A stretch of DNA of 64,000 bases from Thermoanaerobaculia bacterium (GTDB lineage Bacteria > Acidobacteriota > Thermoanaerobaculia > UBA5066 > Gp7-AA6): contig JBGPCK010000002.1 of assembly GCA_041481715.1 (NCBI GenBank), positions 6,615-70,614 of the forward strand, read 5' to 3'. The position numbers and the translations under genes are program-made. Numbering within the stretch: position 1 is the first letter of the stretch; every line of letters starts with the position of its first letter. The notes below the pieces were generated by a model. The model saw only the letters and a list, made by a program, of their open reading frames with translations. It made no database searches and was not told the DNA's origin. Below, one piece after another: positions 6,225-28,256 of this stretch.

Positions 6225-6242
6225 CCTTCCCGAGATGAGACA

Positions 6243-6611: not shown

Positions 6612-6632
6612 GCCCGGGCTCGCGCACCGATC

Positions 6633-7103
6633 CTAATTTCCCTTCGCCTCGAGGATTCGCATCCGGTCGAAAACAAACTCGAGCGTCGCGTCGACCTCGT
6701 TGAACGCTCCAGCGGCGGCCGAGGAGAGCGTCGTGGGCAGAACGCCCGAGAGCTCCCAGCGGATCAGGACCTCTCCCTTCTCGTCCTTGGCGGTCACGGC
6801 CACCGTCTTCGCGGCCGGGGTCCCGGTATCCGTGGCGGAGTTGATCCAGTCCTGGAGCCGGTTCAACCCCTTTTGAGTCACCGTGAGAACCAGTTGGCGC
6901 TGATCCGGAGAATAGGCCAGGCCGAGGCGCCGCGAGTCCGTGTGAGTCAGGCTCTGGCGATTGAACTCGATCCGGTAGCCGATGACACCGTCCAGAGCCA
7001 CGCCGTCCACGGCAACGGAAACGTTGTTGGGCGATTCGGCCCCAAGAGCCGACCCGGCCAGAAGGCAGCCGAGAAGACTCGCGAGAAGGCGTCTGGGAAG
7101 CAT
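6633..7103 (-). CDS. Small exported protein with a phage tail-tube (T4 gp19 / TIGR02241)-like region
   Basis: I chose the internal ATG at 7103, which gives MLPRRLLASLLGCLLAGSALGA, a signal peptide. The C-terminal part (LVLTVTQKGLNRLQDWINS...IRWELSGVLPTTLSSAAAGAFNEVDATLEFVFDRMRI) follows the gp19-like tail-tube pattern as I remember it. Confidence 0.5.
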   Translation of the reverse strand: MLPRRLLASLLGCLLAGSALGAESPNNVSVAVDGVALDGVIGYRIEFNRQSLTHTDSRRLGLAYSPDQRQLVLTVTQKGLNRLQDWINSATDTGTPAAKTVAVTAKDEKGEVLIRWELSGVLPTTLSSAAAGAFNEVDATLEFVFDRMRILEAKGN

Positions 7104-7285
7104 GGATCCCTCCGATTTGCCGATTCTCGTCAGACTAGCACTCCCCGGGGCCCGACGCGAAGGGGCCTTGATTTGCCAGCCCATCGGGCGTAAGAAGAGC
7201 CCTGTCCGGAGGTCGACCCGGTGATCCTCGAAACTTCTCACCCGCTCCGGCCCTCGGCCGGACCATTCCGCAAAAGGAGAGCCTC

Positions 7286-7999
7286 ATGAGAAAACCGCTC
7301 GCCCTGTTTCTCTTTCTCGTCGCCGCCGGCGCGTTGCTCGCTGCCGGCCCCTCGTCGCCAAGTGGCAAGACCTATGAGGTGACGGCCGACACGATCGAAG
7401 GGTGCTCCTGCCCGCTCTTCTGCTCGTGCTATTTCGGGCCGTCGGCCGACGAACACATGTGCGAGGCGAACAACGTGTACAAGTTCCGCAAGGGCAGCCA
7501 CTACGGCGACGTGGACCTTTCCGACCAGATGGTGTGGCTCTCCCTGGACCTGGGCGGCGAATGGCACAAGAAGCCCGGGCCCGGGATGCCGACCAAGTGG
7601 GTCGTCATCACCTTCGACAAGAATTCCTCGGAGGCCCAGCGCAAGGCCATCGGAGCCGTCCTGAACATCGTCTTCCCGGTCAAGTGGGAGAAGTCCTCTA
7701 CGCGCGAGGACTCGATCGAGTGGCATGAGGACGCCAAGGTGGCACACGCCAAGCTGGCGAGCGGGATGGCGGAGATCAACCTCGACAAGACGACGGGCCC
7801 CGACAAGACGACGCCGACGGTCGTCAAGAACCTCCAATACTGGTTCTCGACCTCCAACGACGGCTTCGTGCTTGCGTACTCCAACCACCATTGGGACGGC
7901 GAGAACAAGTTTCGCATGGAGCACCGCAACGGCTTCACGATCGCCTGGACCGCGAAGGGTGAGATCAAGTCCGAAGCGGCCAAGGTGGCGATGAAGTAA
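7286..7999 (+). CDS. DUF1326-family exported protein
   Basis: AAGGAG lies upstream of the ATG. The product has a signal peptide, a Cys cluster (EGCSCPLFCSCYF) and a YGDVDLS motif, all characteristic of DUF1326. Confidence 0.7.
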   Translation: MRKPLALFLFLVAAGALLAAGPSSPSGKTYEVTADTIEGCSCPLFCSCYFGPSADEHMCEANNVYKFRKGSHYGDVDLSDQMVWLSLDLGGEWHKKPGPGMPTKWVVITFDKNSSEAQRKAIGAVLNIVFPVKWEKSSTREDSIEWHEDAKVAHAKLASGMAEINLDKTTGPDKTTPTVVKNLQYWFSTSNDGFVLAYSNHHWDGENKFRMEHRNGFTIAWTAKGEIKSEAAKVAMK

Positions 8000-13355: not shown

Positions 13356-13623
13356 AAAATTTTGCTCGAGATTTCTTTTTCGACGCCGGGACCCGGGTGA
13401 GGGCCAAGCGGCGCCGCGCTAAGATCGCCCTCTTCGCATGCGGACCCGCGCCCTTTTTCGACGACGATCCCTCGAGTGCTCACCGCGGGGTGGCGCACCG
13501 AATCGGACGTGCCCGCCAGAGCGAGCGTCGGGCGGGCGATCCTTCTCCGCCCGGCCCGGTTTCGAACCCGGGCTAAACCGCTCCGAACGCATCCAGTTAG
13601 CGCCCTTTCGCCTGCGGGCCGCC

Positions 13624-14988
13624 ATGGCGCTGCTCTTGCTGGCCGGCCTTCTGACTTCCGCCTGCGGGGCCGACTCCTCGACGCGTCTGGCCGGACGCGT
13701 CCTGGAGGACCATCGGCAGAAGGCTCGGGTTCGCCCTCTCTCGGCGGCCGGTTCGATCCGCTTGCGCCTATCCCCGACGGGCCCGGCCGGAGGCGAGGGC
13801 GGCAGCGCGGAGATCGAATGGGCGGGCGGGCGCTACCGCGAGACGGTGACCTCGGCGGGCGTCTCGACCGTCCGCGGCATCCAGGCCGGAAAAGCCTTCC
13901 TCATCGACGAGGACGGCGTGACGCGCGTTGGATCGGAGCCGATGCTGGCCGAGCTCGTCACGCGGTCCTACTTCTGGCGGCGCGCGTACCTCTTCGAGGA
14001 CCGGCAGCGCGCCAAGCTCTCGCTCGGGCCCACGGACGAAAAGACCGTGTCCGTGCGCTTGCGCCCCCTCGGCGGAAACGATCTGCGCCTCGTCTTCGAC
14101 CGCCGCACCGGCGCGCTCACGAGCGTCTCGTCGCCACGTCTTCATCTCGTGTTCGAGAGCCCGATCCGATTCCGCGATCTCGCTCCGCGAGCCGCGGTCG
14201 GCGAAATCGTCTGGACCGGCCTGCCGACACGGCGTCTCCCGGATCCCGTCGTCGGCGGATGGCGGGGGCAATTCTCACAGCCGGCCGCCGAGGCCGAGCT
14301 TTCCCAGGCCGGCGGTGGAATCTCGATTGAAGCGCAGATTTCAGGCGTCCCGGCGCACCTCTCCATCGACGCCGGACAGACCGGTCCGCTTCGCATCTCG
14401 TCGAAGCTCGCGAAGAGGGCGGGCCTCTCGGGCCGCCGCGACGTCTTCGGGCGTCTGCTCGCCGGAGGTGCGACCCTCGAGATCGGAGCGCTCGCGATGA
14501 CGTCGTTACACGCCGAGATCGACGATCCGGGCGTTCCCGGTATCGACGCCGTTGCGGGCGGCACGCTCTACCGCGAGGCGGTGGTCGAGATCGACCCTTC
14601 GGGCGGGCGCTTTCGCCTCCACGATCCGGCGCGCTGGGTGGTACCCGAGGGCTTCGGGCGCAACGTGCTCGACGATGACGGGGATGTCCCGGTCGCGATC
14701 CTGTTTCGATCCGGGCGGCACGTGCGTTTGCGCGCCGGAACACGGGCTTCGGTGGCGCTGCTCATGTCGGCAGAGGCCGCCCCTCAGTACGGGCTCGATC
14801 CGAAGGACCCGGTGCTTTCCGGACTCGTCTGGGGAACGCTCCGTCTGCCTCCGCTCCCCGTTCGCCTGGAAACCTCGGGCCTCGACCCGGACTGGGGAGA
14901 CGACGGTTCGATCGGCTTCCCGCTGCTGCTGCAGTTCCACGTCTTCGTCGACATGCCGCGCCGCTGGATCTACGTCCGGGCGCCCTAA
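13624..14988 (+). CDS. Lipoprotein, possibly with a retropepsin-like domain (DAG instead of DTG)
   Basis: I chose the ATG at 13624, which gives MALLLLAGLLTSAC (lipobox). The C-terminal half resembles clan-AA aspartyl protease domains (HLSIDAGQTGPLRIS...IDAVAGGTLYREAVVEIDPSGGRF). The upstream 62 codons of the track ORF look non-coding. Confidence 0.5.
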   Translation: MALLLLAGLLTSACGADSSTRLAGRVLEDHRQKARVRPLSAAGSIRLRLSPTGPAGGEGGSAEIEWAGGRYRETVTSAGVSTVRGIQAGKAFLIDEDGVTRVGSEPMLAELVTRSYFWRRAYLFEDRQRAKLSLGPTDEKTVSVRLRPLGGNDLRLVFDRRTGALTSVSSPRLHLVFESPIRFRDLAPRAAVGEIVWTGLPTRRLPDPVVGGWRGQFSQPAAEAELSQAGGGISIEAQISGVPAHLSIDAGQTGPLRISSKLAKRAGLSGRRDVFGRLLAGGATLEIGALAMTSLHAEIDDPGVPGIDAVAGGTLYREAVVEIDPSGGRFRLHDPARWVVPEGFGRNVLDDDGDVPVAILFRSGRHVRLRAGTRASVALLMSAEAAPQYGLDPKDPVLSGLVWGTLRLPPLPVRLETSGLDPDWGDDGSIGFPLLLQFHVFVDMPRRWIYVRAP

Positions 14989-15211: not shown

Positions 15212-16024
15212 TCACGAAGGCCAGAGCGATCGGTAGCCTGAAAGCAGGGGCACGCCGAAAAAGTACGCGGCCACGGCGCCGATCGCGAGGAACACTCCGA
15301 AGGGAATTGCGGTCCGCAAGCCTCCCCGGCGCGCGAGGATCAGGAACAACCCGACGAGGCTTCCGAGAACCGAGGCGAAAAACACGGTGAGGAAGACGCC
15401 CCACGAACCCAAGAAGGCACCGATCATTCCGAGCATCTTCACGTCGCCTAAGCCCATCGCGTCGACGTCTCTCAGCTTGCTCCAGGTCCAGCCGACGAGA
15501 TAGAGCGAACCGGCTCCGATCGCCGCCCCGAGCAGCGCTTGCCGGGGCGTTCTCTGGAGGGAGAGAAAGGAGAGCAGGAGCCCCACGGCGATGCCGGGAA
15601 GCGTGATCGCGTCCGGCAGGAGCTGGACGTCGGCGTCGATCCAGGCCAGCGCCAGGCACGCCGAGCACAGGAAGGCTCCGGAAGCGAAGTCGACCCAGGA
15701 AGGCGCTTTCCAGAAGGCCGCGGCCCAGAGCGCGCCATTGCCAAGCTCCACGAGCGGGTAGCGCGCCGAGATCGGGGCGCCACACGCGCGGCAGCGGCCC
15801 CCGAGGAGAAGCCACGACAAGACCGGCATGTTGTCGAGCGGCCGGATCGGGGCGCCGCATGCCGGACAGTGGGAGCCCGGGTGCACGATCGACTCTTCGC
15901 GTGGCAGGCGATGGATCAGGACGTTCAAGAAGCTTCCGACGAGCAGGCCAAAGAGAGCCGCCGCCGCGACGCCGAAGGCGCCCAGCACAGGAAGCGGGGC
16001 CGCCGCGACGGACTCGAAGATCAG
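15212..16024 (-). CDS. pilD: Prepilin peptidase / N-methyltransferase (PilD family, A24)
   Basis: PilD signatures are present: GSFLNVLIHRLP, CPACGAPIRPLDNMPVLSWLLLGGRCRAC, GLGDVKMLGMIGAFLG and IPFGVFLAIG. The start is uncertain: CTG 16024 (CTGA overlap with the upstream stop), GTG 16063 or GTG 15988. Confidence 0.85.
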   Translation of the reverse strand: MIFESVAAAPLPVLGAFGVAAAALFGLLVGSFLNVLIHRLPREESIVHPGSHCPACGAPIRPLDNMPVLSWLLLGGRCRACGAPISARYPLVELGNGALWAAAFWKAPSWVDFASGAFLCSACLALAWIDADVQLLPDAITLPGIAVGLLLSFLSLQRTPRQALLGAAIGAGSLYLVGWTWSKLRDVDAMGLGDVKMLGMIGAFLGSWGVFLTVFFASVLGSLVGLFLILARRGGLRTAIPFGVFLAIGAVAAYFFGVPLLSGYRSLWPS

Positions 16025-18219
16025 GCGATCCTCCCCGCGCGCTCCGGCCGCGGGCGAGGCCACGCGAGCAGACCGATCAGGGCCGCAAGCGAAATCGCGG
16101 CCCCGGCATAGAACGAGAGAGGCCGGTAGCGGAACACGACGCGGTGTGATCCCGCGGGCACCGCGACTGCGCGAAAGAAGCCGTCGGCGGTCAGAATCCG
16201 CGCCGCACGGCCGTCGAGGGTGACGCCCCATCCCGGATACGCGAGGTCGGCCAGCACCAGAATTCCCGGGGCGTCGGCCGAGACCTCTGCCACGACGCGC
16301 TCGGGCCGCTCCTCGACGATTCCGGTGACCACGTAACGCCCTGGCGCCGCCTGCGGGCGGGGCGAAGGCTCGCGGTCGAGCAGCACGCGCCGGTTCCAGT
16401 CGCTTTCGCCGCGCGCCACGCGGGACCATGCCCGCGCGGCGTCCGGCTCCACGGCGTACTCACCGACGAAGGAGACCCGCGGCCGGTAGGGATTCAGAGG
16501 GGCGCGATAGAAGTCCCCGACCCTTCGGGAGCCGAGTCCCACGGGCGGAAAGGGCGTCCAGTAGATGCGGCCGCTCGCGGCCCCGGCAGGTCGGGCCGGG
16601 TCTTCTCCGCCGTCGATCGCGTCCGCGATGCGTCGCGCGGCCTCCGTCGGGAGGGCAGCCGCCGTGCGAACCGTGCGCACGCCGGCCAGCAAGTTCGTGT
16701 ATCCGATGAGGGCCTCGCGCTGACGACGGACCATCGCCGAGTCGAAGGTCCAGTCGCGCGTCACCCACGGGGCCAGCTCGCTCATCGGCGGGGTCAGAGT
16801 CCTACCCGGCACGCGCGCGAGAAAGTCGCTGGTCTCGGGGCGGCGCCGGATCTCTTCCCCCGCCACGAATCGAAAGACCGCGCGGTTGGCCAGCGCGAAG
16901 GAGGCTACGAGGCAGAGCGACGCGATGCCCGCGAGCGCGCCGCCCGCGAGGCGAAACCGCGGGCGCAGGAGGGCGAGCGCCAAGAGCGCCGCGGCTCCCG
17001 AGCCGGTCACGGCGCGAAACGGAGCATCCTGCCTCGACAACGCCACGACCGCGATTCCCGCTGCGCCGGCCAGAAGCGCGAGGAGCAGCCGACGCCGCCG
17101 GTCCGCCAGGAAACGCAAGCTGTCCAGACCGAGGCCCGAAAGCGCCGCAAGGGAAAAGACCGTCGCGGTCAGGGCCTTGGCAGGGTACCGGATGCGGTTC
17201 AAACCCGGCAGCTCGCGCAGCCATGTGCCCGGAGGCGCGGCCGCCGCGAGCACCACGCCGGCCGCCGCAACTGCGGCGAGAAGCCAGACGAGGCCGCGGC
17301 GCTCCCGCTCGGCGAAGGCGGCAGCCGCCGCGGCGAGCGGGATCGGCCCGAGAAACAGCGAAGCGAAGAAGAAGTTGCCCAGAGAGTCCTCTCCTGCGCC
17401 GAGCGCGGAAACGAGCGCCCCGCTCCGCACGGCTCCGATGTCGCGCTCTACAGCGGGAAAGGGCGCGCGGCGCTCCGAGCGCAGGGCCAACTCCGCCATC
17501 GGCACGAGCACCCACGCCGCAAGCGCCAGCCCGAGGAAGGCGGCCGCCACGCCGCGGCGCAAGCTTTCCCGCGGCGTGGTCTCCTTCCAGCCACCCGAAG
17601 ACTCCTTCCGGCGGAACCGGAGGAAGAGCAGGGCGAGGGCAAGCGTGCCCAGAGAGAGCTCCGGGCTACCGGCCATGGCCTGCAGGCCCACGAGCAGGGC
17701 GAATCCGGCCCCGGCCGCACGCGAGCGCAGACCCGACCGCGCCAGAGCCAGGATCGCGGGCAGGTAGGCGAAGGCGCCAAAGTGATTCCAGTAGGCCGAG
17801 AGCGAGGCCGCCGGACCGGAGGACGCAAACACCGCCGCGGCGGCCAGCGCACCGGCGTCGGTGACTCCCTCCTCCTTGCAGAAGCGCCACATGCCCCAGC
17901 TGGCGATCGCGAAGTGAAGCAGCAGAAAGAGCCCAGCCGCGAGCGCCGGCGAGGGGATCAGGAAGAACAGGCTCGGCGGATAGAAGACCCCCGACTGGGC
18001 ATTGGCGAGCCAAGGCTCTCCGACGCCGGACAGAGGATTCCAGAGCGGGATCTCTCCCGAAAGGAGCCGGTCCGCCGTGTAGAGCTTGACGGGGAAGAAG
18101 AAGTCCGCCTGGTCGCGAAACGTCGGCGCCCGGCCCCAGAGGAGGGATGGACCCAGCCAGAGAACCGGAGGAATCAGCGCCGCGGCAGCGAGAACGCCCG
18201 AATGAAACGCGCGGCGCAC
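16021..18219 (-). CDS. YfhO-like GT-C membrane glycosyltransferase
   Basis: The 732-aa polytopic product has a GTG start. Its N-terminal signature is FRDQADFFFPVKLYTADRLLSGEIPLWNPLSGVGEPWLANAQSGVFYPP. The C-terminal domain (YPGWGVTLDGRAARIL...VPAGSHRVVFRYRP plus a final TM) is shared with four paralogs in the window. Confidence 0.75.
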   Translation of the reverse strand: MRRAFHSGVLAAAALIPPVLWLGPSLLWGRAPTFRDQADFFFPVKLYTADRLLSGEIPLWNPLSGVGEPWLANAQSGVFYPPSLFFLIPSPALAAGLFLLLHFAIASWGMWRFCKEEGVTDAGALAAAAVFASSGPAASLSAYWNHFGAFAYLPAILALARSGLRSRAAGAGFALLVGLQAMAGSPELSLGTLALALLFLRFRRKESSGGWKETTPRESLRRGVAAAFLGLALAAWVLVPMAELALRSERRAPFPAVERDIGAVRSGALVSALGAGEDSLGNFFFASLFLGPIPLAAAAAAFAERERRGLVWLLAAVAAAGVVLAAAAPPGTWLRELPGLNRIRYPAKALTATVFSLAALSGLGLDSLRFLADRRRRLLLALLAGAAGIAVVALSRQDAPFRAVTGSGAAALLALALLRPRFRLAGGALAGIASLCLVASFALANRAVFRFVAGEEIRRRPETSDFLARVPGRTLTPPMSELAPWVTRDWTFDSAMVRRQREALIGYTNLLAGVRTVRTAAALPTEAARRIADAIDGGEDPARPAGAASGRIYWTPFPPVGLGSRRVGDFYRAPLNPYRPRVSFVGEYAVEPDAARAWSRVARGESDWNRRVLLDREPSPRPQAAPGRYVVTGIVEERPERVVAEVSADAPGILVLADLAYPGWGVTLDGRAARILTADGFFRAVAVPAGSHRVVFRYRPLSFYAGAAISLAALIGLLAWPRPRPERAGRIA

Positions 18220-18261
18220 GCGCTCATTGTAGCCGGGAGAACCGGCGCGTCCCCCGCGTGT

Positions 18262-18744
18262 CTACTGCTGCGCCCCTTCCGGCCATTGGACGAACGTGCC
18301 GTTGGAATAGAGGATGTCGTCGTTGAAGTCGGTCGTCGTGCCGCAAACGAATCCGTCCGCCGCCCCGTTGCGGCCAAGGCTTCGGATGTTGTACCGGAAG
18401 AGGGCGTTGTCCACCGCGTACGCCATGAAGCGCCCCCAGCCGTCCTGCAAGGGGGCGTGCGCGATGTAAGTCGGCGTCAGATTCGTGAAGGAGGAGAGGT
18501 TGAGCGGGTTCCCCGAGACCGTGAAGGTTCCGGGGTTGCAGGCGGCCGACGGGTAGAAGTTGTTGTCCACGCTGTAGGTCTCGATCGCGGTCGCCAGCGC
18601 CCGCATGTCGGACATGGTCCGCTTCTGCTTGCCCCTCTGCACGGCGTTGAGCAGGTTCGGGATCGCGATTGCCGCCAGGATGCCGATGATCGCGATCACG
18701 ATCAGCAACTCGATCAGAGTGAAGCCTCGTTCTCGTTTCTTCAT
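18262..18744 (-). CDS. Prepilin-type protein (type IV pilin / GspG-like pseudopilin), copy 1
   Basis: The ATG at 18744 gives MKKRERGFTLIELLIVIAIIGILAAIAIPN, a class III signal with G-1/F+1/E+5. The product is 160 aa with two Cys residues in the C-terminal half. Confidence 0.85.
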   Translation of the reverse strand: MKKRERGFTLIELLIVIAIIGILAAIAIPNLLNAVQRGKQKRTMSDMRALATAIETYSVDNNFYPSAACNPGTFTVSGNPLNLSSFTNLTPTYIAHAPLQDGWGRFMAYAVDNALFRYNIRSLGRNGAADGFVCGTTTDFNDDILYSNGTFVQWPEGAQQ

Positions 18745-18779
18745 GAAAAAAGCGGTCCCGACCGTACGCCGGGACCGCT
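18745..18779 (-). terminator. Intrinsic terminator/attenuator between the two pilin genes
   Basis: The minus strand reads AGCGGTCCC-(11 nt)-GGGACCGCT followed by TTTTTC, running directly into the ATG of pilin copy 1. A second hairpin, CTCCGCG-GAC-GCGGAG, lies at 18804..18819. Confidence 0.55.
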
Positions 18780-18824
18780 TCTCCTTACCGGTTGAGACGC
18801 TCACTCCGCGTCCGCGGAGAAAGG

Positions 18825-19316
18825 TTACTGCTGTGTACCCTCAGGCCACTGGATGAAAGTTCCGTCGGCGTAGAGGATGTCGTCGTTGAAGTCGGTCGTC
18901 GTGCCGCAGTTGACCGTGCCCGAGAACGACCCGTCGCGGCCGCCGGACTCGAGACGGTAGTTGTTCGAGGCGCCGTCGATCGCATAGCGCATGAACCGGC
19001 CCCAGCCGTCCTGCCGCGGAACCTGAGCGATGTAGGTCGGCTGCAGGTTCGTGAACGAGGAGAGGTTCAGGACGTTCGCCGTGCCGTTTGTGAAGAGACC
19101 CGCGTTGCAGGCCGCCGCCGGGTAGTAGTTGTTGTCGACCGCGTACGACTCGATCGCGGTCGCGACCGCACGCATGTCCGACATCGTCCGCTTCTGCTTG
19201 CCCCTCTGCACGGCGTTCAACAGATTGGGGATCGCGATGGCGGCCAAAATGCCGATGATCGCGATGACGATCAAGAGCTCGATCAGGGTAAAACCAGCTT
19301 CCCGCTTCTTCATCAT
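18825..19316 (-). CDS. Prepilin-type protein (type IV pilin / GspG-like pseudopilin), copy 2
   Basis: GGAGG lies upstream. The product starts MMKKREAGFTLIELLIVIAIIGILAAIAIPN. It is a paralog of 18262..18744 with a near-identical N-terminal 60 aa and C-terminal CGTTTDFNDDILY..GTF.QWPEG.QQ. Confidence 0.85.
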   Translation of the reverse strand: MMKKREAGFTLIELLIVIAIIGILAAIAIPNLLNAVQRGKQKRTMSDMRAVATAIESYAVDNNYYPAAACNAGLFTNGTANVLNLSSFTNLQPTYIAQVPRQDGWGRFMRYAIDGASNNYRLESGGRDGSFSGTVNCGTTTDFNDDILYADGTFIQWPEGTQQ

Positions 19317-19362
19317 GCCTCCTAGTTCAGTTCCAATTCCATTTCGGTCTGCCTATCTCATC

Positions 19363-19378
19363 GCAAGGGCGAAGCCAG
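19363..19378 (-). promoter_or_regulatory. Candidate sigma-54 (-24/-12) promoter upstream of the pilin genes
   Basis: The minus strand reads CTGGCTTCGCCCTTGC, with the GG and GC dinucleotides at the canonical spacing of TGGCAC-N5-TTGC. It ends 47 nt upstream of the ATG at 19316. Confidence 0.4.
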
Positions 19379-19647: not shown

Positions 19648-21039
19648 CTAGCGCGGCCGCGCTTCAACTGCATACTCGGCGACGATGTCGGCGTAGAGCG
19701 CCAGGCCGTTCAGGTAATCGCGCAGGAAGACACGCTCGTCATTTCCGTGACGGCGAACCGAGTCCGTGATGTTCATCGGCATCGGCGAATAACCGTACGC
19801 CGGGATTCCCTTCTGGCGGAAATGGATCGACGTCGTGTAGGCCGCGAAGGTCGGGACCGGGCCGAAGGGGATGCCAGGGTAACGCGCTTGTGTCACGCGC
19901 TTGAGCAGCTCGGTGAAAGGCGTCGGGTAGGGACTGGCGCCCGTGGGCCCTGTCGTGTAGGACCAGACGGCCGAGACCCGCAAGACCGACGCGTCCCGGA
20001 GAATCGGAGCGAGGTAGACGCCCGGGTCGACCCCCGGAGGCGTTGAAATGATTACGTACGCGCGCAGACTGTCCCGCGCGTCCGGCGGGTCGGGGAAGGG
20101 AGGCGTCCAGAAGACCCGCGCCTCGAGAAAGGCGCCGTAGCGGTCGGGCAGCGCTGCGAGCTCGGCGGGATTGCGGCGCACGCGGTCGAGATGCCGCAGC
20201 GGATCCGTCAGGGGGTTCACGAGATGATTGGCGAGCAGGTCGAACCCCAGAACGACGTGTGGGTGTGGCTCGACGGGTGTCGAGGAAAGTTTTTTCCATT
20301 TGGCCGCCAGCTCTTCGAGCGGCCTTCCCGCCGTCGCGGCGAACTCCGCCGAGGCGTAACCGGCCTGCAGCGTCTCAAGGCCCCAGAAGCGCACGTCGCG
20401 CACGACCATCTCGGTCGTTCCGCCCTCGTTCAGAACGGCGGCCACCCCCGCAAACCACTCCGGCCGGTGATCCAGAAGCCACTTCGAGCCCCAGCGCTGC
20501 CCGAGCTCCTCGTCCGCCTCGGCGAGGAACAGGATGTCCGACTCCGGAACGACACCGTGCCGCTTGAGGTCGCGCAGCGCCAGGGCCTGGGCGAGCCCGA
20601 GCGATTTCATGTCGTACGCGCCGCGCCCGTAGAGGTAACCGCGCTTGATCGCGCCTTCGAAAGGGGCGGCCTCCTTCCAGAGCGCGGGGTAGGCGTCAAC
20701 CACGTCGATGTGGTTCAAGAGCAAGAGCGCCCCCTCGCGCCTCTTGCCCGGCAGGCGCGCAAGCAGATTGCAACGCCCCGGGGCCGGGCAGACGATCTCG
20801 GTCTCGATCCCTTCGCAGTCCAGTAGCTCCTTGAGGAAGCGAGCGCCCGCCTCCTCCGTCTTTCCCTGAGACGTGTCGATCCGGACGTAGTCCCGGAGCA
20901 GGCGGACGGACTCGAACTTCAACCACTGCGCGGCCGGGCGGGTCGTGTCCGACTCGATCCGGGAGACGGGCTTCTCCTTGCGCGCGCAGGCGGCCGCGGC
21001 GAGCAGCGCGAGAAGGAGTCGGGCCGGGCGTCGCATCAT
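19648..21039 (-). CDS. M20-family metallopeptidase/amidohydrolase lipoprotein
   Basis: The ATG at 21039 overlaps the upstream stop (ATGA). The product starts MMRRPARLLLALLAAAAC (lipobox). Metal-binding motifs NHIDVV, GRGAYDMKS and EADEELG are present. Confidence 0.8.
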   Translation of the reverse strand: MMRRPARLLLALLAAAACARKEKPVSRIESDTTRPAAQWLKFESVRLLRDYVRIDTSQGKTEEAGARFLKELLDCEGIETEIVCPAPGRCNLLARLPGKRREGALLLLNHIDVVDAYPALWKEAAPFEGAIKRGYLYGRGAYDMKSLGLAQALALRDLKRHGVVPESDILFLAEADEELGQRWGSKWLLDHRPEWFAGVAAVLNEGGTTEMVVRDVRFWGLETLQAGYASAEFAATAGRPLEELAAKWKKLSSTPVEPHPHVVLGFDLLANHLVNPLTDPLRHLDRVRRNPAELAALPDRYGAFLEARVFWTPPFPDPPDARDSLRAYVIISTPPGVDPGVYLAPILRDASVLRVSAVWSYTTGPTGASPYPTPFTELLKRVTQARYPGIPFGPVPTFAAYTTSIHFRQKGIPAYGYSPMPMNITDSVRRHGNDERVFLRDYLNGLALYADIVAEYAVEARPR

Positions 21040-23351
21040 GTCCGCTTCTGACGAGAACCGGAAACGAAGATGAGGACCGCCGCCATTCCCGCGGCGAGCG
21101 GCCCGAGGCGCGTGGACTCTCCGCCCGGCACGCGCTCCTGCCAGTCGACCGCGTGGCGCCCCGCCGGGACGGGAATCGCCGTGTACGCCAGGTATGCGGG
21201 GACCGCCTCGACCTCCCGGCCGTCGATCGAGACCGTTCGGTAGCTCCAGAACGCGCGCAGGACGAAGAGCCACGCGGGCCGGGACGTTTCGGTCTGGAGC
21301 CGCAGGCGCTCCGGGCTCTTCTCGAGGATCCGGAGAAGTCCCGGAGGCGCCTCTCCCCGGGCACGGCGCCCCGTCTCGAGCAGCAGCTCGCCGCGGCCCA
21401 TGCTCGCAAGCTCGGCGGCGGCTTCCAGCGCGCCAGGCTCCTCTTTCCAGCGCGTCGCCAGCCGGATGTCCGGCTGCGCCCCATCCTGCTCGTCCCATTC
21501 CTGCGCGGCGTTGCCGCCGACCGGGTGGAATCCGGCGACCGGCGGCTGGCCGCGCGGGCGCACGCCGAACTTCAGGCAGAGGTTTTCGAAGAGGACGCCG
21601 CCGTCGGGAGCTCCCGCGGCGAGGCCGGACAGGCGCCGGAGGCTCTCCACCCGCGAAACGTCGCCCGCATCGAAGTCGTAGTTGAAGACCGTGCCCCGGC
21701 CCCAGAATACGGGCGTGTAGTAGATCCAGCTCTCTCGCGGCAGCTCCGCCCAGCCCAGGCCCGTGCGCCCCGCAGTCTCTCCCGGCGATGCGTAGATCGA
21801 CTCTCCCAGCGTGCGGAAGGCGCCCTCGGCGTCGGCGCTCGCGATCCGGCGCGCCAGCCGCGTCGGCCCGAAGGCCTCGAGCTCGGTCGACACTTCCGGT
21901 ATCCGCCGGGTGGCGGCCATGGGAACCAGTGTCAGAAGCAACAGCGCCGCGGACCTCGCCCAGAGCGCCGGACGCCGCGCGAGCTCGATCGCGATGACCG
22001 TCGCGACCCAGAGGAGTCCCCCCTCGGCCAGCGCCCAGGGCAACTGCACGGCTGCGAAGTGAGGGAGCGGGGCGCCCCCCGCCAGCAACCCGCCGGCGAT
22101 CCGCGCCGCTTCGGAAGGCCAGAGCGCCGTCAGACCGGCGGCCAGGGCGAGCAGCGCGGCAATCGCAAGGCTCCCGCGCGGCCGCCGCCCTTCACCGCGG
22201 TAGACGTCGAAGGCGCGCGCCGCCATTAGCGCCATCGCCAGTGCCGCGGCCACGGCGAGCTTTTCGGGGTTGCGCAGAGCCACAGGAGACACGACGCGGC
22301 CAAAGCCTTGCGGAAGCAGGCTCGGCAGAATGGAGGCGGCCAGGCCGAAGAGCAGCAGGATGCGCGCGAACCGCGCGCCCCGCTCCTTCCTTCTCCACAT
22401 CGTTCCCGCGCCCATCGCCGCGAGCGCCCCTGCGTAGAGCGTCGAGAAGAGGCCCATTGCCTTGTCGCCGAAGGCGCGCCATCCCCAGACCTCCGAGGGC
22501 GTCAGGCGCCAGGTCTCCCCGAAGGGATACGGCACGACGAGCTCGGCGAGCCTCCACGGAGATACCGAGAATCGGGTCACCTCGGCAAGGCGCAGACCCA
22601 GAACGGCGCGGTTGGTCTCGGGAATCCAGAGCGCCGTTGCCACGATCTGAGGAAGCGCGGCGAGCACCGCGAGACCGAGCGCGACAGAGAGCCGAGCCAG
22701 GGCCGCGCTGCGCTCGACCCGGGGCATCTCGATCGCGATCCAGAGGGCGGCGCCGAAGACGCCGAGCGCCACCGTGAAGACGTCGGCGGCCAGCAGATCG
22801 AGCGCGAAGAGGAATGCCAGCGCGAGCGTCTGCGCCGCGGGTCGCTTCCATGGCCGGGCGGCCGCCCAGACGAGCCACGGCAGCAGCGTCATTCCCGGCA
22901 GGATGTGCGGGTAGAAGACTTCCGAAACGGCGACGCCCGAGAAGGCATAGGTGACCGCGCCGAGCCACGCGGCGCCAGCCGAGGCGGAGAGCGCGCGAAG
23001 CAGCAGCAGCGTCCCGATTCCAGCGGCGGCCCAATGCAGGAGCGGGTAGAGGCGCATGGCGAGCGGGAACGGCAGGCGGGAAAGCAGCGGCCGCACGGGA
23101 TAGAGAGAGCCGGTATTGGGATTGGGGAGGAGCGGCCGTCCGCCGGAAACCTCGGGAGTCCAGACGGGGAGCCGGCCGCGAGCGTACGCGTCGTGGATCG
23201 ATTTCTCCAGGGGCAGGTTGTAGGCGAGCAGGTCCCTTCCCGTGAAGTTGCGCCGGAAGAAGAGCGGGCTCGCGTAGACCGCCACGACGAGGGCCGCAAA
23301 CAGGAGCGCCGCACCGAGCGAGCCCGGTGTCTCACGGGCCGGCCGGTTCAC
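21036..23351 (-). CDS. YfhO-like GT-C membrane glycosyltransferase (tandem paralog B)
   Basis: The GTG at 23351 overlaps the upstream stop (GTGA). The N-terminus (FRRNFTGRDLLAYNLPLEKSIHDAYARGRLPVWTPEVSGGRPLLPNPNTGSLYP) is collinear with 23348..25741. The 155 upstream codons of the track ORF overlap the preceding gene. Confidence 0.75.
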   Translation of the reverse strand: MNRPARETPGSLGAALLFAALVVAVYASPLFFRRNFTGRDLLAYNLPLEKSIHDAYARGRLPVWTPEVSGGRPLLPNPNTGSLYPVRPLLSRLPFPLAMRLYPLLHWAAAGIGTLLLLRALSASAGAAWLGAVTYAFSGVAVSEVFYPHILPGMTLLPWLVWAAARPWKRPAAQTLALAFLFALDLLAADVFTVALGVFGAALWIAIEMPRVERSAALARLSVALGLAVLAALPQIVATALWIPETNRAVLGLRLAEVTRFSVSPWRLAELVVPYPFGETWRLTPSEVWGWRAFGDKAMGLFSTLYAGALAAMGAGTMWRRKERGARFARILLLFGLAASILPSLLPQGFGRVVSPVALRNPEKLAVAAALAMALMAARAFDVYRGEGRRPRGSLAIAALLALAAGLTALWPSEAARIAGGLLAGGAPLPHFAAVQLPWALAEGGLLWVATVIAIELARRPALWARSAALLLLTLVPMAATRRIPEVSTELEAFGPTRLARRIASADAEGAFRTLGESIYASPGETAGRTGLGWAELPRESWIYYTPVFWGRGTVFNYDFDAGDVSRVESLRRLSGLAAGAPDGGVLFENLCLKFGVRPRGQPPVAGFHPVGGNAAQEWDEQDGAQPDIRLATRWKEEPGALEAAAELASMGRGELLLETGRRARGEAPPGLLRILEKSPERLRLQTETSRPAWLFVLRAFWSYRTVSIDGREVEAVPAYLAYTAIPVPAGRHAVDWQERVPGGESTRLGPLAAGMAAVLIFVSGSRQKRT

Positions 23352-25741
23352 GCGGCGGCTCCCGCGCCGCGGCGCTCCCGCGCGAGGAGCCACCCGGCTG
23401 CCAGAACGAAGCCAAGCGGTCCGAATCGCGAAACCGACCATCCCGGCGCGTGCTCCCACCACTCGACACGGTGCTCTCCCGCCGGGACCGCGATCGCCGT
23501 GAAGGCGAGCTGGGCGGGCACCGGATCCGCCGGGCTTCCGTCGAGAAGCACCGTGCGGTAGCTCCAGAAGCCCCGGAGCACGAAGAGCCAGGTCGGGTCG
23601 GGGGCCGAGACCGCGAGAAGCAGCCGCTCGGGGCTCTTCTCCACCACGCGTACCGTCCCGGGCCGCGCGGATCCGGGCGCCGCTCGCCCCGTCTCGAGAA
23701 CGGCCTCTCCGGCCTGAAGGAGCGGGATCGCCCGCAGCGCATCGAGCGCTCCGCTCTCCTCCCGCCAGCGCCCGAGCAGGCGGATGTCGGGAGAGGCCCC
23801 CGGGTTCTCGTCCCAACTCTGAGAGCCGTCGTGTCCGAACGGCCGATACCCGCTCACGGGCTCCTGGTCGCGCCAGCGAATGCCGTACCGCAGGGCGAGG
23901 TTCCCGAAGAAGACTCCGGCGCCCGGAAGCGTCGCCATCGGCGAGGAAAGGCGCCGCAGGCTGTCGACGCGGGACAGGTCCCCGACGTCCAGGTCCGAGT
24001 TGAAGACGGTCCCGCGCCCCCAGAGCACCTGCGTGTGCAGGAACCAGACCCGGCGCGCATAGTCGCTGCCGCCGGGATCCGTCGGGCGCGCGGCAATCTC
24101 GACCCCCGACGGAGGCCGGTAGGAAGACTCATCCAGCGTCCGGTACAGACCGTGCGGGTCCCGCCGCGTGATCGCGCGTGCGAAAGGCGTCGGCGCGAAG
24201 ACGATCTCCTCTCCGTCCGCGCGCGCAATCTTTCGGTTGGCGGCGACGGGAACGAGCAGGAGCAGCACCAGTCCGGCGAGGCTCCAGGGCCCCGGCCGCC
24301 GCAGCCCGTCGAGCGCGATCAGAGTGCCGACCCAATACAGGCCGCCCTCCGCCAGCGCTGCCGGAAGCTCCCGACTCGCCGCCACGGCGGCCGAGGGCGC
24401 CGCGCCCACCGCCGCCACCGCGAGCCGCCCCGCTCCTTCCGGGAACAACGCCGCCGTTGCCGCCGCAGCCGCGAGCAGAGCGGCCACCGGAAGCATCCAC
24501 GGCGGTGGGCGAATCTCCCGAAAACGGTCCAGGGCGAGCCCCGCCGCAATCGCGAGCGCCAGAGCGAGCGCCACACAGAACTTTTCCGGGTAGCGCAGGG
24601 GGATCGGAGAAGCCCAGCCGAGCATCGCCTTCGGAGCGAAGCTCGGGAGGACCGCCAGAACGACAGCCAGGATCGCGAGGGCGCGCGCGAAACGTAAGCC
24701 CCTCCCGCGCGGCCGGCGCGCGATCGTCGCCAGCGCCACGAACGCGAACGCTCCGGCGTAGAGTGTCGCGAAGAAGAAACGCAGCGCCGACTCGCCCCAG
24801 ATCGCCTGGATGTCCTGCGACCAGACCGCGCCGAAGGGGTACGGCACGACGAGCTCGAGCAGGCGCCACGGCGAGACCGAGAAGTGGAAGGTCTCCGCGA
24901 GCTTCATCCCGATCACGGCGCGGTGAGTCTCGGGGACCAAGAGCGCCGTCGCCAGAATCTGGGGAGCCGCGAGCAGCGCACCCAGGGCCAGGGAAAGGGC
25001 GAGGTTTCCGGCGCCCGCCCGGCGCTGCCCCGGCGGCGTTTCGAGCAGGGTCCAAAGAATGCCGCAGAGGATCGCGAGACCGCAGGTCAAGACATCGCCG
25101 GCCAGGAACAACAGGCCGTAGACGACCGCCGCGACGACGACGCGGCGCCCCGCCGTGGGCGCCGGGCGGACGAGGGTCCAGAGGGCCCAAGGGAGCAGAG
25201 TGACCCCGGGCTGGAAGTTGGAGAAGTAGAGCTCCGAGACCACGACTCCGGAAAAGACATACGTGACCGCCGCGAGCAGGCTCCCCGCGGAGGAGGCGCC
25301 GATCGCCTGCAGGAGCAGAATCACGCCTACCCCGGCCGTGGCCCAGTGCAGAACGGGAAAGATCCGCATCGCCAACGGAAACGGGACCCGAGAGAGCAGC
25401 AGACGGACGGGATAGAGGACACCGCTGTTCGGGTTGGGCATGAGCGGCCTTCCGCCCGAAGCGTCCGGAAACCAAACGGGCAGCCTCCCCCGCGCCCAGG
25501 CGTCGTGCACGGCCTTTTCGAGGGGCAAGTTGTAGGGGATCAGGTCCCGTCCGATGAAATTGCGCCGCGTCACGAGGGGGTTCGCGTACGCCGCGAGCAC
25601 GAGCAGCAGAAACAGAAGCACGGGAAGCGCCCGCGTGGCCCGGGCGCCGGAGGACGGCCGGGACGAGGGCACACTCACGCGCGGAGACAGCCGTGAGGAT
25701 TCAACGCGGGTTAGGATAGGGCATCGAGCGAGAAGCGCCAA
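23348..25741 (-). CDS. YfhO-like GT-C membrane glycosyltransferase (tandem paralog A)
   Basis: The signature is VTRRNFIGRDLIPYNLPLEKAVHDAWARGRLPVWFPDASGGRPLMPNPNSGVLYP, with the C-terminal VPAGEHRVEW domain. The start is uncertain: TTG 25741, or GTG 25678/25672, which would leave a more plausible divergent intergenic region. Confidence 0.7.
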   Translation of the reverse strand: MALLARCPILTRVESSRLSPRVSVPSSRPSSGARATRALPVLLFLLLVLAAYANPLVTRRNFIGRDLIPYNLPLEKAVHDAWARGRLPVWFPDASGGRPLMPNPNSGVLYPVRLLLSRVPFPLAMRIFPVLHWATAGVGVILLLQAIGASSAGSLLAAVTYVFSGVVVSELYFSNFQPGVTLLPWALWTLVRPAPTAGRRVVVAAVVYGLLFLAGDVLTCGLAILCGILWTLLETPPGQRRAGAGNLALSLALGALLAAPQILATALLVPETHRAVIGMKLAETFHFSVSPWRLLELVVPYPFGAVWSQDIQAIWGESALRFFFATLYAGAFAFVALATIARRPRGRGLRFARALAILAVVLAVLPSFAPKAMLGWASPIPLRYPEKFCVALALALAIAAGLALDRFREIRPPPWMLPVAALLAAAAATAALFPEGAGRLAVAAVGAAPSAAVAASRELPAALAEGGLYWVGTLIALDGLRRPGPWSLAGLVLLLLVPVAANRKIARADGEEIVFAPTPFARAITRRDPHGLYRTLDESSYRPPSGVEIAARPTDPGGSDYARRVWFLHTQVLWGRGTVFNSDLDVGDLSRVDSLRRLSSPMATLPGAGVFFGNLALRYGIRWRDQEPVSGYRPFGHDGSQSWDENPGASPDIRLLGRWREESGALDALRAIPLLQAGEAVLETGRAAPGSARPGTVRVVEKSPERLLLAVSAPDPTWLFVLRGFWSYRTVLLDGSPADPVPAQLAFTAIAVPAGEHRVEWWEHAPGWSVSRFGPLGFVLAAGWLLARERRGAGAAA

Positions 25742-25758: not shown

Positions 25759-27231
25759 GTGGGAGTCCTGCTCGCGCTCCTGCCGCTCGCCCTCGGCGCC
25801 CGCCTCGTCCTGCTCCAGGCGCGCCCCCTCTGGTCCGACGAGCTCTTCACGGTCTGGGCGGCGCGCCTGCCCTTCCCGGATCTGATCGCGGCGCTGCGGC
25901 AGGACTCCGGGCCGCCCGGCTTCTATCTTCTGGAGAGGCCCTTCGTGCGGCTGGCCGAGGCGCTCGGAGCCGACTGGGTTTCCCGGGCGCTCCCTTTCCT
26001 CGCAGCCCTCCTCCTCTTCGCGGCGGCGCGGGGACTCCCGCGCGGGACCGCGCGGCGAACCGGCATCCTCCTTTTCGCAACGTCCGCGCTGATCGGCCTC
26101 TATGCCGGCGAGGCGCGGGCCTATGCGCTGCTCTCGCTGCTGACGCTGCTCCTCTTCCGTCTCGCGCTCGGAACGGACGAGCGCCCGGCCCGCCTCGCCG
26201 CGACGCTCGGGCTCGGGGCGCTTTCGCTGTACACGCATTACCTCGCGATGCCGGCCGTCGCCGTCCTCTTGTTCCTCGCGGTCGCACGCCGGCGCTTCCG
26301 GACGGCCCTCGCTCTCGCGGGCTCGGTGCTTCTCTTCGCGCCCTGGATTTCAATTCTCGCCGCGCAGCCGGCGGCGGCGATCTCCTGGATGCGCGAGCCG
26401 GCGGGCGTCTCGGCGCTCGGCTTCCTCTCGGCGCTCGGCGGCGTCGGGCGCGTCCCTCTGCCCTTCGGCCCGCCGTTGCCGACGATCCTGCCGATCCTGG
26501 CGCTTTGCGTCGGCGCCGCTCTGGTAGCCGCGCTCGTTCCGGCCGCACGCCGCGACCGGGAGACACGCGATGCGGTCCTCTTCGTCGCCCTCGTGCTCGG
26601 CGCGGCGGTCGCCGTCTCGCTCGTAACGCCGTTGGCCTTCGCAGGCCGGACGGAGCTCGTGGTCCTGCCCGTTTGGATTTGGGCCGTCGCCCGAAGCGCG
26701 GGCGGCAGCCGCGCGGCGGGTGCATGCGGACTCGCCGCGGGAGTGCTCGGATGCCTCGCGGTCGGGCTCCTGGCGCTCCAGCCGCACCCGCCTTCCGCGC
26801 CGGCCCGGGCGGCCCGGGTGCTCGAACGGATCACCCGGCCGGGCGACACGCTCTTCGCGGGCCCCGGCCTCTACCTTCCCTTTCGCGTCGCCGCTGATCG
26901 CGGGCGCCTCGTTCCCGCGCTTTCTGCATTTCCGGGCGAAGTCGCGCGACACCCGGGGTGGTGGGAGCCGGTCGCGCCCGGGCCGTCCGACTACGAGGCG
27001 GTCGCGGCCGCCGGAGCACGGCCCGGGGCGGTCTTTCTGTTCCTTCCTCCGGGCTTCGTCACCCCGGAGCTGAAGGCGATTCTCAAGCGGCGGGGCTCGG
27101 TGCGGGAGCTTCCGCTTCGGCCCGAAGCGGTGCTGCTCCACTGGGCGCCGGCAGCCGCGGCGCCCGCGCCGCCTGCATCAGCTCCGCCAGAAGCCAGACC
27201 AGCGCCGCCACCCAGGCCGCCAGGATCGTGA
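25759..27231 (+). CDS. PMT_2/ArnT-like GT-C membrane glycosyltransferase
   Basis: This 490-aa polytopic ORF has a GTG start. The first periplasmic loop is LWSDELFTVWAARL...DSGPPGFYLL (a DE motif plus a PP..Y.L motif typical of GT39/GT83-like enzymes). Confidence 0.65.
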   Translation: MGVLLALLPLALGARLVLLQARPLWSDELFTVWAARLPFPDLIAALRQDSGPPGFYLLERPFVRLAEALGADWVSRALPFLAALLLFAAARGLPRGTARRTGILLFATSALIGLYAGEARAYALLSLLTLLLFRLALGTDERPARLAATLGLGALSLYTHYLAMPAVAVLLFLAVARRRFRTALALAGSVLLFAPWISILAAQPAAAISWMREPAGVSALGFLSALGGVGRVPLPFGPPLPTILPILALCVGAALVAALVPAARRDRETRDAVLFVALVLGAAVAVSLVTPLAFAGRTELVVLPVWIWAVARSAGGSRAAGACGLAAGVLGCLAVGLLALQPHPPSAPARAARVLERITRPGDTLFAGPGLYLPFRVAADRGRLVPALSAFPGEVARHPGWWEPVAPGPSDYEAVAAAGARPGAVFLFLPPGFVTPELKAILKRRGSVRELPLRPEAVLLHWAPAAAAPAPPASAPPEARPAPPPRPPGS

Positions 27232-28234
27232 CCGACACCGGCCACGCCAGGTCGAGCGACTCTCCCGACAGGAAGATCGCCGCTGCTCCCGAAAAAATGG
27301 CGTAGGCCGGCGAGACGAACAGGCTGCCGAAAGCGATGGGCCAGACCAGGTGCTGGTTGGCGAGGCCGGGGAGCCCGACGAGCACGGCGAGGAAGACGAG
27401 CAGGCAGGCACGCGGAAGCGTATCCCGGCGTGCGATCCAGAGCGCCGCCGCGACGACGGCGAGAAACACCAGAAAGTAGCCCAGCGCGCCTCCGGCCGGG
27501 AAGTGCAGCAGGAATTGCAGGCCACCCGGCCTTTGCCGCTTCTGACCGGCCAGCCACGTGGCGTACAGCAGCACGTTGTTCGCGATCGTGCGGGAAGACG
27601 AGAGAAACGGCACGAAAGAAAGCGCGAACACGGCGTACGGAAGGAAAAGCAGAGGTCCGGCGATTCCCCCGGCGCGCCACCGCCGCCAGAAGAGAGGCAG
27701 GTGAAACGCCGTCACGTGCTTGACGAGAAGCGACATCGAAAGCAGGCCCACGACGCCGGCGCGCTTGCCCCGCGGATCCGGTCCTGCCGCGACGTAGACC
27801 GCGGCCAGTAGAAACAGGATCGAAGAGCCGTCGAACTGTCCGTGCGCGCAGGAGATCAGCACGGACACGGGATTGGAAAAGAAAAGCAGCGCCGCACGGC
27901 GGCCTGCCTCCGGGTTGCGGCCCATCCGGTCGATCGCCAGACGCAACAGGAGCCAGGCGGTGGCCGCGTCCACTGCGATCTGGAGGAGGCCCGCCAAGAG
28001 CACGAAGAGCCCGACGTTGGGAGCGGACACGGACCAGAGCCCGGCCACCACGTAGGACCAGACCGGACTGTAGTTGTAGCGGTCGGTTACCGCGTAGACG
28101 TTCTGGCCCGCGAGCACCGCGTTGGCGACGATCAGATAGGAGCCGGAGTCGAAGTTGCCGCGGAACTGTGCGGCAACCGTGATGCGCAGGACGAGGACCA
28201 GGAGGAAGACCATGCGCGCCTCGCGCAGCCTCAT
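27083..28234 (-). CDS. DUF2029/GT87-like GT-C membrane protein
   Basis: The ATG at 28234 lies 10 nt after GGGAGG. The motif YLIVANAVLAGQNVYAVTDRYNYSPVW matches the paralog at 38474..39565 (FQIVAEIVNRGGNVYTETSRYNYAPVW). The product is polytopic. Confidence 0.65.
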   Translation of the reverse strand: MRLREARMVFLLVLVLRITVAAQFRGNFDSGSYLIVANAVLAGQNVYAVTDRYNYSPVWSYVVAGLWSVSAPNVGLFVLLAGLLQIAVDAATAWLLLRLAIDRMGRNPEAGRRAALLFFSNPVSVLISCAHGQFDGSSILFLLAAVYVAAGPDPRGKRAGVVGLLSMSLLVKHVTAFHLPLFWRRWRAGGIAGPLLFLPYAVFALSFVPFLSSSRTIANNVLLYATWLAGQKRQRPGGLQFLLHFPAGGALGYFLVFLAVVAAALWIARRDTLPRACLLVFLAVLVGLPGLANQHLVWPIAFGSLFVSPAYAIFSGAAAIFLSGESLDLAWPVSVTILAAWVAALVWLLAELMQAARAPRLPAPSGAAPLRAEAEAPAPSPAA

Positions 28235-28256
28235 GGCCTCGGGCCTCCCGAGTCGT

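Follow-up and report, generated by a model that had tools for sequence, protein, structure and literature searches.

What is the gene of a membrane glycosyltransferase doing between prepilin genes and the gene of the prepilin peptidase PilD, and could its product modify pilins? The question is raised by a 64,000-nucleotide (nt) stretch of DNA from a Thermoanaerobaculia bacterium (GenBank assembly GCA_041481715.1, contig JBGPCK010000002.1, positions 6,615 to 70,614 of the forward strand), the whole of which is referred to here as the window. On the minus strand of the window, which has a G+C content of ~69%, two tandem prepilin genes are followed by a gene for a YfhO-type protein of the glycosyltransferase C (GT-C) fold class and by pilD. 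A first-pass annotation, made from the sequence alone, had described these genes as an operon and had proposed that the GT-C enzyme glycosylates the pilins. The module itself was confirmed, with all four genes lying on the minus strand where that annotation had placed them, and its interpretation in terms of pilin glycosylation was partly supported. The preferred reading is that of a pilin-maturation operon in which the YfhO-type GT-C O-glycosylates the type IV pilin or pilins and is co-produced with PilD; a probability of roughly 0.5 is assigned to it. The coupling of the genes is robust, deeply conserved and previously undescribed.

Layout and conservation of the locus

The features of the locus are listed in the order in which they are read on the minus strand.

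21036..~23350 and 23348..25741, minus strand: pair of YfhO-like GT-C paralogues in tandem, sharing 51% identity, 5' of the M20 gene
19648..21015, minus strand: M20-family metallopeptidase with a lipoprotein-type signal peptide (MMRRPARLLLALLAAAAC); Pfam Peptidase_M20; directly 5' of the pilin promoter
19363..19377, minus strand: sigma-54-type -24/-12 element TGGCTTCGCCCTTGC; exact pattern match, ~47 nt 5' of the ATG of pilin 1
18825..19316, minus strand: prepilin gene 1, 163 amino acids (aa); class III signal peptide, GFTLIELL N-terminus and GspG-like globular domain; Pfam N_methyl and T2SSG
18746..18778, minus strand: intrinsic-terminator-like hairpin with U6; 11-bp GC-rich stem and 5-nt loop, ending right before the ATG of pilin 2
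18262..18744, minus strand: prepilin gene 2, 160 aa; Pfam N_methyl and T2SSG
16021..18219, minus strand: YfhO-family GT-C membrane glycosyltransferase, 732 aa, GTG start; assigned by Pfam, AlphaFold2 (AF2) and Foldseek
15212..16024, minus strand: prepilin peptidase/N-methyltransferase PilD; A24_N_bact and Peptidase_A24

Conservation of this order was assessed using one genome per species (GTDB), which gave 149 relatives from which 80 loci were kept, all from Thermoanaerobaculia or Acidobacteriota. The proteins of the window were mapped onto the 80 loci, and the denominators used below are the loci informative for each feature. The order M20, pilin(s), GT-C, PilD was seen in the first three relatives inspected (GT-C 57-72% identical), and PilD was located ≤400 nt 3' of GT-C in 64/65 loci. 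A pilin gene lay <1 kb 5' of GT-C in 46/58 loci and 1.6-4 kb away in 9/58 (within 4 kb, 55/58), and one, two or three tandem pilin copies were present in 14, 19 and 13 loci, respectively. The first-pass annotation had named the pilin-YfhO-pilD order in relatives as a test of its proposal, and the order held strongly, across the class and beyond. Given the abundance of GT-C genes in the window, adjacency in a single genome would be weak evidence; the comparative data make the link strong.

Other genes accompany the module to differing degrees. The M20 gene was found upstream in 47/47 Thermoanaerobaculia loci and is missing from two distant loci, L089 and L091; a role of this peptidase in the module is doubtful. 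The two tandem YfhO-like paralogues recur in most loci of Thermoanaerobaculia. Type IV pilus genes continue the module across most of the class, with a PilS-like kinase in 61 loci, PilT-like ATPases in 49 and minor pilins of the FimU/PilW/PilX type in several; this continuation has been lost in the sub-clade of the window. Within the window, no assembly genes of the type II secretion system (T2SS) or of type IV pili were detected in Pfam scans of ~55 open reading frames (ORFs) or by tblastn with PilT-like, PilW, PilX, FimU-like and PilS-like queries, as the first-pass annotation had also reported.

Four distant loci show the following arrangements.

L087 (P0253): pilin C-terminus, terminator-like hairpin, GT-C, GTGA overlap, PilD
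L088 (P0259), 4001-7344: GT-C and PilD abut, with a stop and start that share one base (TGATG); SNF2-family helicase upstream and no adjacent pilin
L089 (P0268): two pilins, GT-C, overlapping PilD and PilS-like kinase; flanks entirely different, no M20
L091 (P0285): as L089

The PilS-like kinase is kept with the module in L087, L089 and L091. Identities of the distant loci to the window are 39-43% for GT-C over the N-terminal ~160-260 residues only (BLAST), 38-53% for the pilins and 43-50% for PilD. No PilD neighbour was seen in L086 and L090, whose contigs are short and which are uninformative for the boundary of the family. Judged from these gene orders, the core unit under selection is GT-C plus PilD, nearly always placed just 3' of the pilin gene(s).

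An insertion of 2-4 kb separates the pilin from GT-C in one sub-clade (L033, 2379-6268; L012, 3907-5911; also L021, L030, L042, L062, L067 and L083). The inserted genes encode two membrane proteins on the opposite strand, one of them weakly STT3-like ('FDDMYHAKR', 'PWSWGH'). These GT-C-like genes occupy a position reminiscent of the variable slot for accessory genes that lies 3' of pilA.

Both domains of a prepilin peptidase are present in PilD (A24_N_bact, 122.5 bits; Peptidase_A24, 70.6 bits). A start of pilD overlapping the stop codon of GT-C had been noted in the first-pass annotation; the overlap is upheld as a conserved feature, since a canonical GTGA, ATGA or TTGA is found in 63/70 species-level loci, whereas the overlapping codon at 16024 in the window is CTG (CTGA), which is not a canonical start. 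Across the 70 loci the overlap reads GTGA in 43, ATGA in 16, TTGA in 4 and CTGA in 4. Its retention with three different start codons indicates selection. The relatives with CTGA are L006, L007, L011 and L016; between a point 60 nt 5' of the overlap and the conserved N-terminal motif, L011 and L016 offer no alternative candidate start, which suggests either CTG initiation or a start further upstream. PilD of the window may instead be initiated at GTG 15988 or GTG 16063.

The candidate sigma-54 promoter proposed upstream of pilin 1 was recovered by the exact pattern match listed above. The window contains the pattern 7 times, where 1.5 occurrences would be expected, and an equivalent TGGC-N7-TTGC lies 52-101 nt 5' of the first pilin in 50/66 related loci. 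The operon as first described stands in its gene set and order; the terminator-like hairpin between pilin 1 and pilin 2 had been overlooked. It also escaped a simple terminator scan and was found by direct folding of the spacer, the 82-nt RNA of which folds at -44.4 kcal/mol (z = -4.83), with 0/200 shuffled sequences as stable. A comparable terminator follows the first pilin in 32/43 pilin-to-pilin spacers of relatives. From the last pilin to GT-C, the spacer in relatives is usually short and free of a terminator, and in the window the gap from the stop codon of pilin 2 to the GTG start of GT-C is 42 nt. With a terminator after the first (major) pilin, co-transcription of that gene with GT-C would occur only through read-through.

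The GT-C protein and the pilins

The GT-C protein of the window matches Pfam YfhO (PF09586) with 35.1 bits (gathering cut-off 28.5). An alignment of orthologues was prepared from 42 sequences with 54-81% identity to it; Pfam YfhO was matched by 42/42 of these (best E = 6e-14) and DUF2079, which we take to be another family of the GT-C clan, was matched weakly by 7/42. Residues 1-650 gave no Pfam alignment to the YfhO model at E ≤ 1, and neither a Wzy_C nor a tetratricopeptide repeat (TPR) match was obtained with Pfam for the protein and its 42 orthologues. The close homologues are all ~730 aa long and come from metagenome-assembled genomes of Thermoanaerobaculia/Acidobacteriota; the close orthologues form one full-length cluster at 50% identity, with a representative scoring 1129 bits, and the next full-length relative scores 393 bits. 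An exhaustive HMMER search returned 63,935 cluster representatives (50% identity) at E ≤ 1e-3, with 7,413 at E ≤ 1e-30.

The AF2 model of the protein has a predicted local distance difference test score (pLDDT) of 85.9 and a predicted template-modelling score (pTM) of 0.89. In this model, 13 transmembrane (TM) helices extend to residue 444 and are followed by a periplasmic, mixed alpha/beta, beta-rich domain of ~255 aa (445-700) and a final TM helix (701-719); a hydrophobic segment spans residues 700-721. The topology agrees with that of Bacillus subtilis YfhO, which has ~13 TM helices, the last two of them flanking a large extracytoplasmic domain (PMC5836110). In a Foldseek search of the PDB the significant matches were GT-C enzymes only, with AftD the best (6w98; E = 2.5e-7, probability 1.00), followed by STT3 (8b6l_I), AglB (7e9s and 3waj), ALG12 (9s6t), EmbB (7bwr) and Pmt4 (9i5k); the Foldseek TM-scores are modest (0.30-0.45). 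From its sequence and predicted structure, the 732-aa protein belongs to the YfhO family of GT-C-fold enzymes, its membership following from the C-terminal region, the topology and the fold rather than from an alignment of the catalytic module. The first-pass description of the gene as YfhO-like GT-C is thereby borne out by the Pfam match, the modelled architecture and the Foldseek matches.

Two blocks are invariant in the 42 orthologues: R35-D36-Q37-x-D39-F-x-P43-x-K45 in loop 1, right after TM1, and W60-N61...G67-E68-P69-W70. Distant GT-C relatives keep the loop-1 motif as 'RGDLPDFFWPMK.YTA' (also written 'RGDLPDFFWP'). Residues R35/D36/Q37/D39 constitute a putative DxD-like acidic motif in the first periplasmic loop, as would be expected of an active GT-C site.

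The two pilins are 77-78% identical, and pilin 1 is likely to be the major pilin. They score 79.1 and 78.2 bits against the GspG equivalog model TIGR01710 and thus fall below its cut-off of 88.85. Pilin 1, for which 1080 homologues were retrieved, shares full-length homology with E. coli K-12 GspG, at 33% identity (BLAST, pilin residues 5-131). In an alignment of 103 distinct pilins from related loci, essentially no variation is seen at C69 or in the block C134-G-T-T-T-[N/D]-F-N-D-D-I, and residues ~74-87 and 127-133 are variable and Ser/Thr-rich. The pilins of distant relatives keep 'PTTNFNxDI' and have lost the cysteines.

The conserved Thr/Ser-rich segment CGTTTDFNDD had been pointed out together with the proposal of glycosylation. 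It is invariant as a block together with the Cys pair, and in the alignment with E. coli GspG it is matched to the C-terminal 'G-T-E-D-D-I-T-N-W', which includes the loop 'GTEDDI'; we take the C-terminal loop of GspG to be calcium-binding, as in GspG crystal structures. Its conservation cannot be read as that of a sequon because the homology to the GspG loop offers a structural explanation, and the segment was rejected as evidence of glycosylation, the homologous loop being present in E. coli GspG, which is not glycosylated. N-glycosylation was also considered, given the STT3-like genes nearby; N-X-S/T sequons number 0-5 per pilin, with an 'NGT' near the C-terminus in 57/103, and are too poorly conserved to support it. 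The globular domain of the pilins contains ~19% Ser/Thr (9.6% in E. coli GspG), a content that is usual for pilins and has no diagnostic value. Other glycosylated pilins suggest, by analogy, that the likelier place for an acceptor is the variable alpha-beta-loop region, rich in Ser/Thr, and not the invariant loop at the C-terminus.

Candidate sugar donors, proposed mechanism and competing explanations

Five YfhO-like paralogues with N- and C-terminal similarity are found in the 64-kb window (16021-18219, two in 21036-25741, 35972-38359 and 60789-62891). Further genes of possible relevance to sugar transfer are as follows.

27083-28276: weak GT87-like protein
29651-31366: PMT_2-like protein, overlapping the 232-aa GT2
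31363-32061: GT2 of 232 aa, candidate polyprenyl-phosphate-sugar synthase
32188-34245: STT3/AglB-like protein without WWDYG, with 'PWSLGH'
38474-47385, minus strand: Arn-like aminosugar cluster with polysaccharide deacetylase, NAD-dependent epimerase/dehydratase, formyltransferase, ArnC-like GT2, DegT-type aminotransferase, PAP2 phosphatase and Wzt/Wzm ABC transporter
42462-43439: GT2, candidate polyprenyl-phosphate-sugar synthase

The ORFs at 25.7-27.1 kb and 28.3-29.7 kb gave no Pfam match. A source of lipid-linked donors in the neighbourhood had been suggested in the first-pass annotation, and candidate GT2 synthases are indeed present; the Arn-like cluster and the neighbouring glycosyltransferase genes are a possible source of such donors.

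Some further genes of the window were recorded. A 516-aa ORF without a Pfam or NCBIfam match (13438-14988, plus strand) converges on pilD and occupies the same place in L001; its start is probably near 13624, at MALLLLAGLLTSAC, with a lipoprotein-like signal peptide. A small PilZ-domain protein is encoded at 6243-6611, ~9 kb from pilD, and another near the locus in L001 (15865-16245), which makes a link between cyclic di-GMP and pilus function possible. At 48349-52872, a regulator of the ScfR type (helix-turn-helix, M78 peptidase and ScfRs) lies divergently beside malate synthase and isocitrate lyase of the glyoxylate shunt and is unrelated to the module.

In the preferred reading, the sigma-54-type promoter would drive the major GspG-like pilin gene, and the leaky intrinsic terminator would lower transcription into pilin 2, GT-C and PilD, with translation of PilD coupled to the GT-C gene by the 4-nt stop/start overlap in most relatives. 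The prepilins would be inserted in the inner membrane with the globular domain in the periplasm, and PilD would cleave the leader and methylate at the cytoplasmic face. A polyprenyl-phosphate-linked donor, made by a cytoplasmic GT2, would be flipped across the membrane, and the GT-C, with its acidic loop-1 motif (R-D-Q-x-D) facing the periplasm, would move the sugar onto Ser/Thr of the pilin before assembly. We infer the pilin as acceptor, the type of donor and the site of transfer; the conservation of the locus suggests a previously undescribed sugar-modifying enzyme of pilins.

Several observations weigh against this reading. The invariant TTT motif is accounted for by homology to a structural loop of GspG. 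The AF2 model of pilin 1 is poor (pLDDT 67.6; low-diversity alignment of 40 sequences) and was used neither for a fold search nor for surface exposure. In the GT-C, the Pfam YfhO match spans only residues 660-710 (model positions 785-835, comprising the last beta-strands and the final TM helix), and a search of PDB sequences with the GT-C profile gave no match even at E = 10. Neither GT2 of the window adjoins the pilin-linked GT-C, nor is a dedicated GT2 or a GtrA-type flippase consistently adjacent; in the window, no GtrA-family flippase was present among the ORFs scanned, the window not having been scanned exhaustively for small membrane proteins. At the level of gene order, the tightest conserved link is that of GT-C to PilD and not that of pilin to GT-C, as in L088; ~10 loci have insertions between pilin and GT-C, and the terminator usually parts the first (major) pilin from the genes downstream. 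Finally, YfhO-like paralogues are numerous in the window and in these genomes, and with five of them in 64 kb the family clearly has other acceptors in this organism.

The GT-C may therefore be considered as an enzyme acting on a non-pilin acceptor (envelope polysaccharide, lipopolysaccharide/lipid A, or other periplasmic or surface proteins) whose place in the pilD operon would serve co-regulation alone, such as an adjustment of the cell surface when pili are produced. YfhO-type enzymes were first found to act on teichoic acids (PMC5836110), and decoration of envelope glycans is clearly a major activity encoded here, to judge from the five paralogues, the STT3-, PMT- and GT87-like genes and the Arn-like cluster. 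The pairing of GT-C with PilD in L088, where there is no neighbouring pilin, and the terminator between the major pilin and GT-C would fit such a role as well. However, this orthogroup, unlike its paralogues, is fixed beside PilD with the overlap in 63/70 species, it stays 3' of the pilins even where all other flanks differ, and no gene for polysaccharide export or polymerisation travels with the module. PilD, moreover, has to our knowledge no role outside prepilin-like substrates. An acceptor other than the pilin is accordingly held to be unlikely, though it keeps real weight.

Since the strongest conserved feature is the stoichiometric coupling to PilD, the GT-C could also be mainly a non-catalytic or accessory partner of PilD or of pilus biogenesis, such as a chaperone or scaffold for the prepilins or for PilD. 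There is a parallel in some accessory proteins encoded next to pilA (TfpY-like), which are reported to act in assembly rather than in modification (PMC11841053). Such a role is made highly improbable by the completeness of the GT-C fold and by the invariance of the acidic loop-1 motif, kept in distant relatives, and of many periplasmic-loop residues in the 42 orthologues. An absence of any functional link, with the GT-C gene having hitch-hiked between pilin and pilD in an ancestor and the synteny having been inherited since, is barely credible: all close matches do come from one class, in which the M20 gene and the paralogues are also syntenic, so that some of the conservation reflects shared ancestry, but shared ancestry alone is insufficient because the core survives complete replacement of the flanks (L089 and L091) and divergence of the GT-C to the point where only its N-terminus aligns by BLAST. 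The 4-nt overlap, kept with three different start codons, also speaks against it. A bolder extension of the preferred reading, in which the GT-C is an obligatory stoichiometric partner of PilD and glycosylation is built into the maturation of all PilD substrates across the class and its relatives, is regarded as improbable and speculative; in that case the two upstream paralogues might lengthen the sugar into a polymer in the manner of TfpW and the mycobacterial arabinosyltransferases. Type IV pili would then be glycosylated by a third route, distinct in mechanism, and for the first time by an enzyme tied to PilD instead of to the pilin gene.

Glycosylation of pilins affects pilus stability, surface behaviour and resistance to pilus-specific phages. 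We know of two types of enzyme by which it has so far been achieved, oligosaccharyltransferases of the Wzy_C type (TfpO/PglL) and TfpW. If the preferred reading is correct, a YfhO-family enzyme locked to pilD would be the third. Protein O-glycosylation by the YfhO family would be extended from Firmicutes to a diderm phylum, and a testable function would be provided for one of the ~64,000 unannotated YfhO-like cluster representatives. Thermoanaerobaculia are abundant, essentially uncultured bacteria of soils and sediments, and a conserved modification of a surface appendage would bear on their ecology. The compact module of pilin, GT-C and PilD is well suited to heterologous reconstitution.

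Comparison with known systems

No report that ties YfhO-type enzymes to pilins or describes this gene arrangement was found in the full-text literature. The pilins of the window share with GspG the T2SSG domain, homology over the full length and the C-terminal 'GT.DDI' loop. They differ from it in scoring below TIGR01710, in their Cys pair, in a C-terminal extension of 16-18 aa, in the presence of 1-3 tandem copies and in the sigma-54-type promoter. In relatives, pilins of this type adjoin PilS-like, PilT-like and PilW/PilX genes and not gsp genes, and the window contains no gsp genes.

As is proposed for the window GT-C, TfpO/PilO uses a lipid-linked donor to modify the pilin on the periplasmic side, and tfpO lies immediately 3' of pilA (10.1101/2020.04.19.049825). 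However, TfpO/PglL are Wzy_C, O-antigen-ligase-like enzymes that transfer preassembled oligosaccharides from undecaprenyl diphosphate, whereas the window GT-C has no Wzy_C domain. TfpW, the pilin D-arabinofuranosyltransferase of Pseudomonas aeruginosa group IV (Pa5196/PA7), is like the window GT-C a polytopic GT-C encoded directly 3' of the pilin; it has been described as a protein of 646 aa with 11 predicted TM helices, a C-terminal TPR, an essential DDX motif in loop 1 and limited similarity to the mycobacterial Emb arabinosyltransferases (10.1101/2020.04.19.049825). A polyprenyl-phosphate-linked donor has been shown for TfpW and would be assumed for the window GT-C. The best fold match of the window GT-C is AftD, a mycobacterial arabinofuranosyltransferase. 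In contrast to TfpW, which carries a TPR, is not reported as YfhO and has no link to pilD, the window GT-C has 13+1 TM helices, a beta-rich periplasmic domain and a Pfam YfhO match, and its gene overlaps pilD. The window GT-C would thus resemble TfpW in position and in GT-C chemistry and, by the features compared, appears not to belong to the TfpW family.

With the YfhO enzymes of Firmicutes, the window GT-C shares PF09586, the topology and the extracytoplasmic catalytic loop, which is predicted here. YfhO has been defined genetically as an extracellular glycosyltransferase for lipoteichoic acid (PMC5836110), and PgfM1 and PgtC2 of the same family O-glycosylate Ser/Thr-rich extracytoplasmic regions of proteins in streptococci (10.1101/2024.05.05.592596). 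PgfM1/PgtC2 and Bacillus YfhO/CsbB follow a three-component logic in which a GT2 makes a C55-P-sugar that is transferred by the GT-C outside the membrane. The Firmicute enzymes act on teichoic acids, adhesins and disordered tails of membrane proteins and are usually encoded beside their GT2 partner; the window GT-C, in contrast, belongs to diderm Acidobacteriota, has pilD as its partner gene and pilin genes as neighbours, and matches Pfam in its C-terminal 50 residues only. The first-pass suggestion of a new substrate class for the YfhO family was overstated, as PgfM1 and PgtC2 already O-glycosylate proteins; with a pilin, the family would gain a further protein target, in a diderm phylum, but no new class of acceptor.

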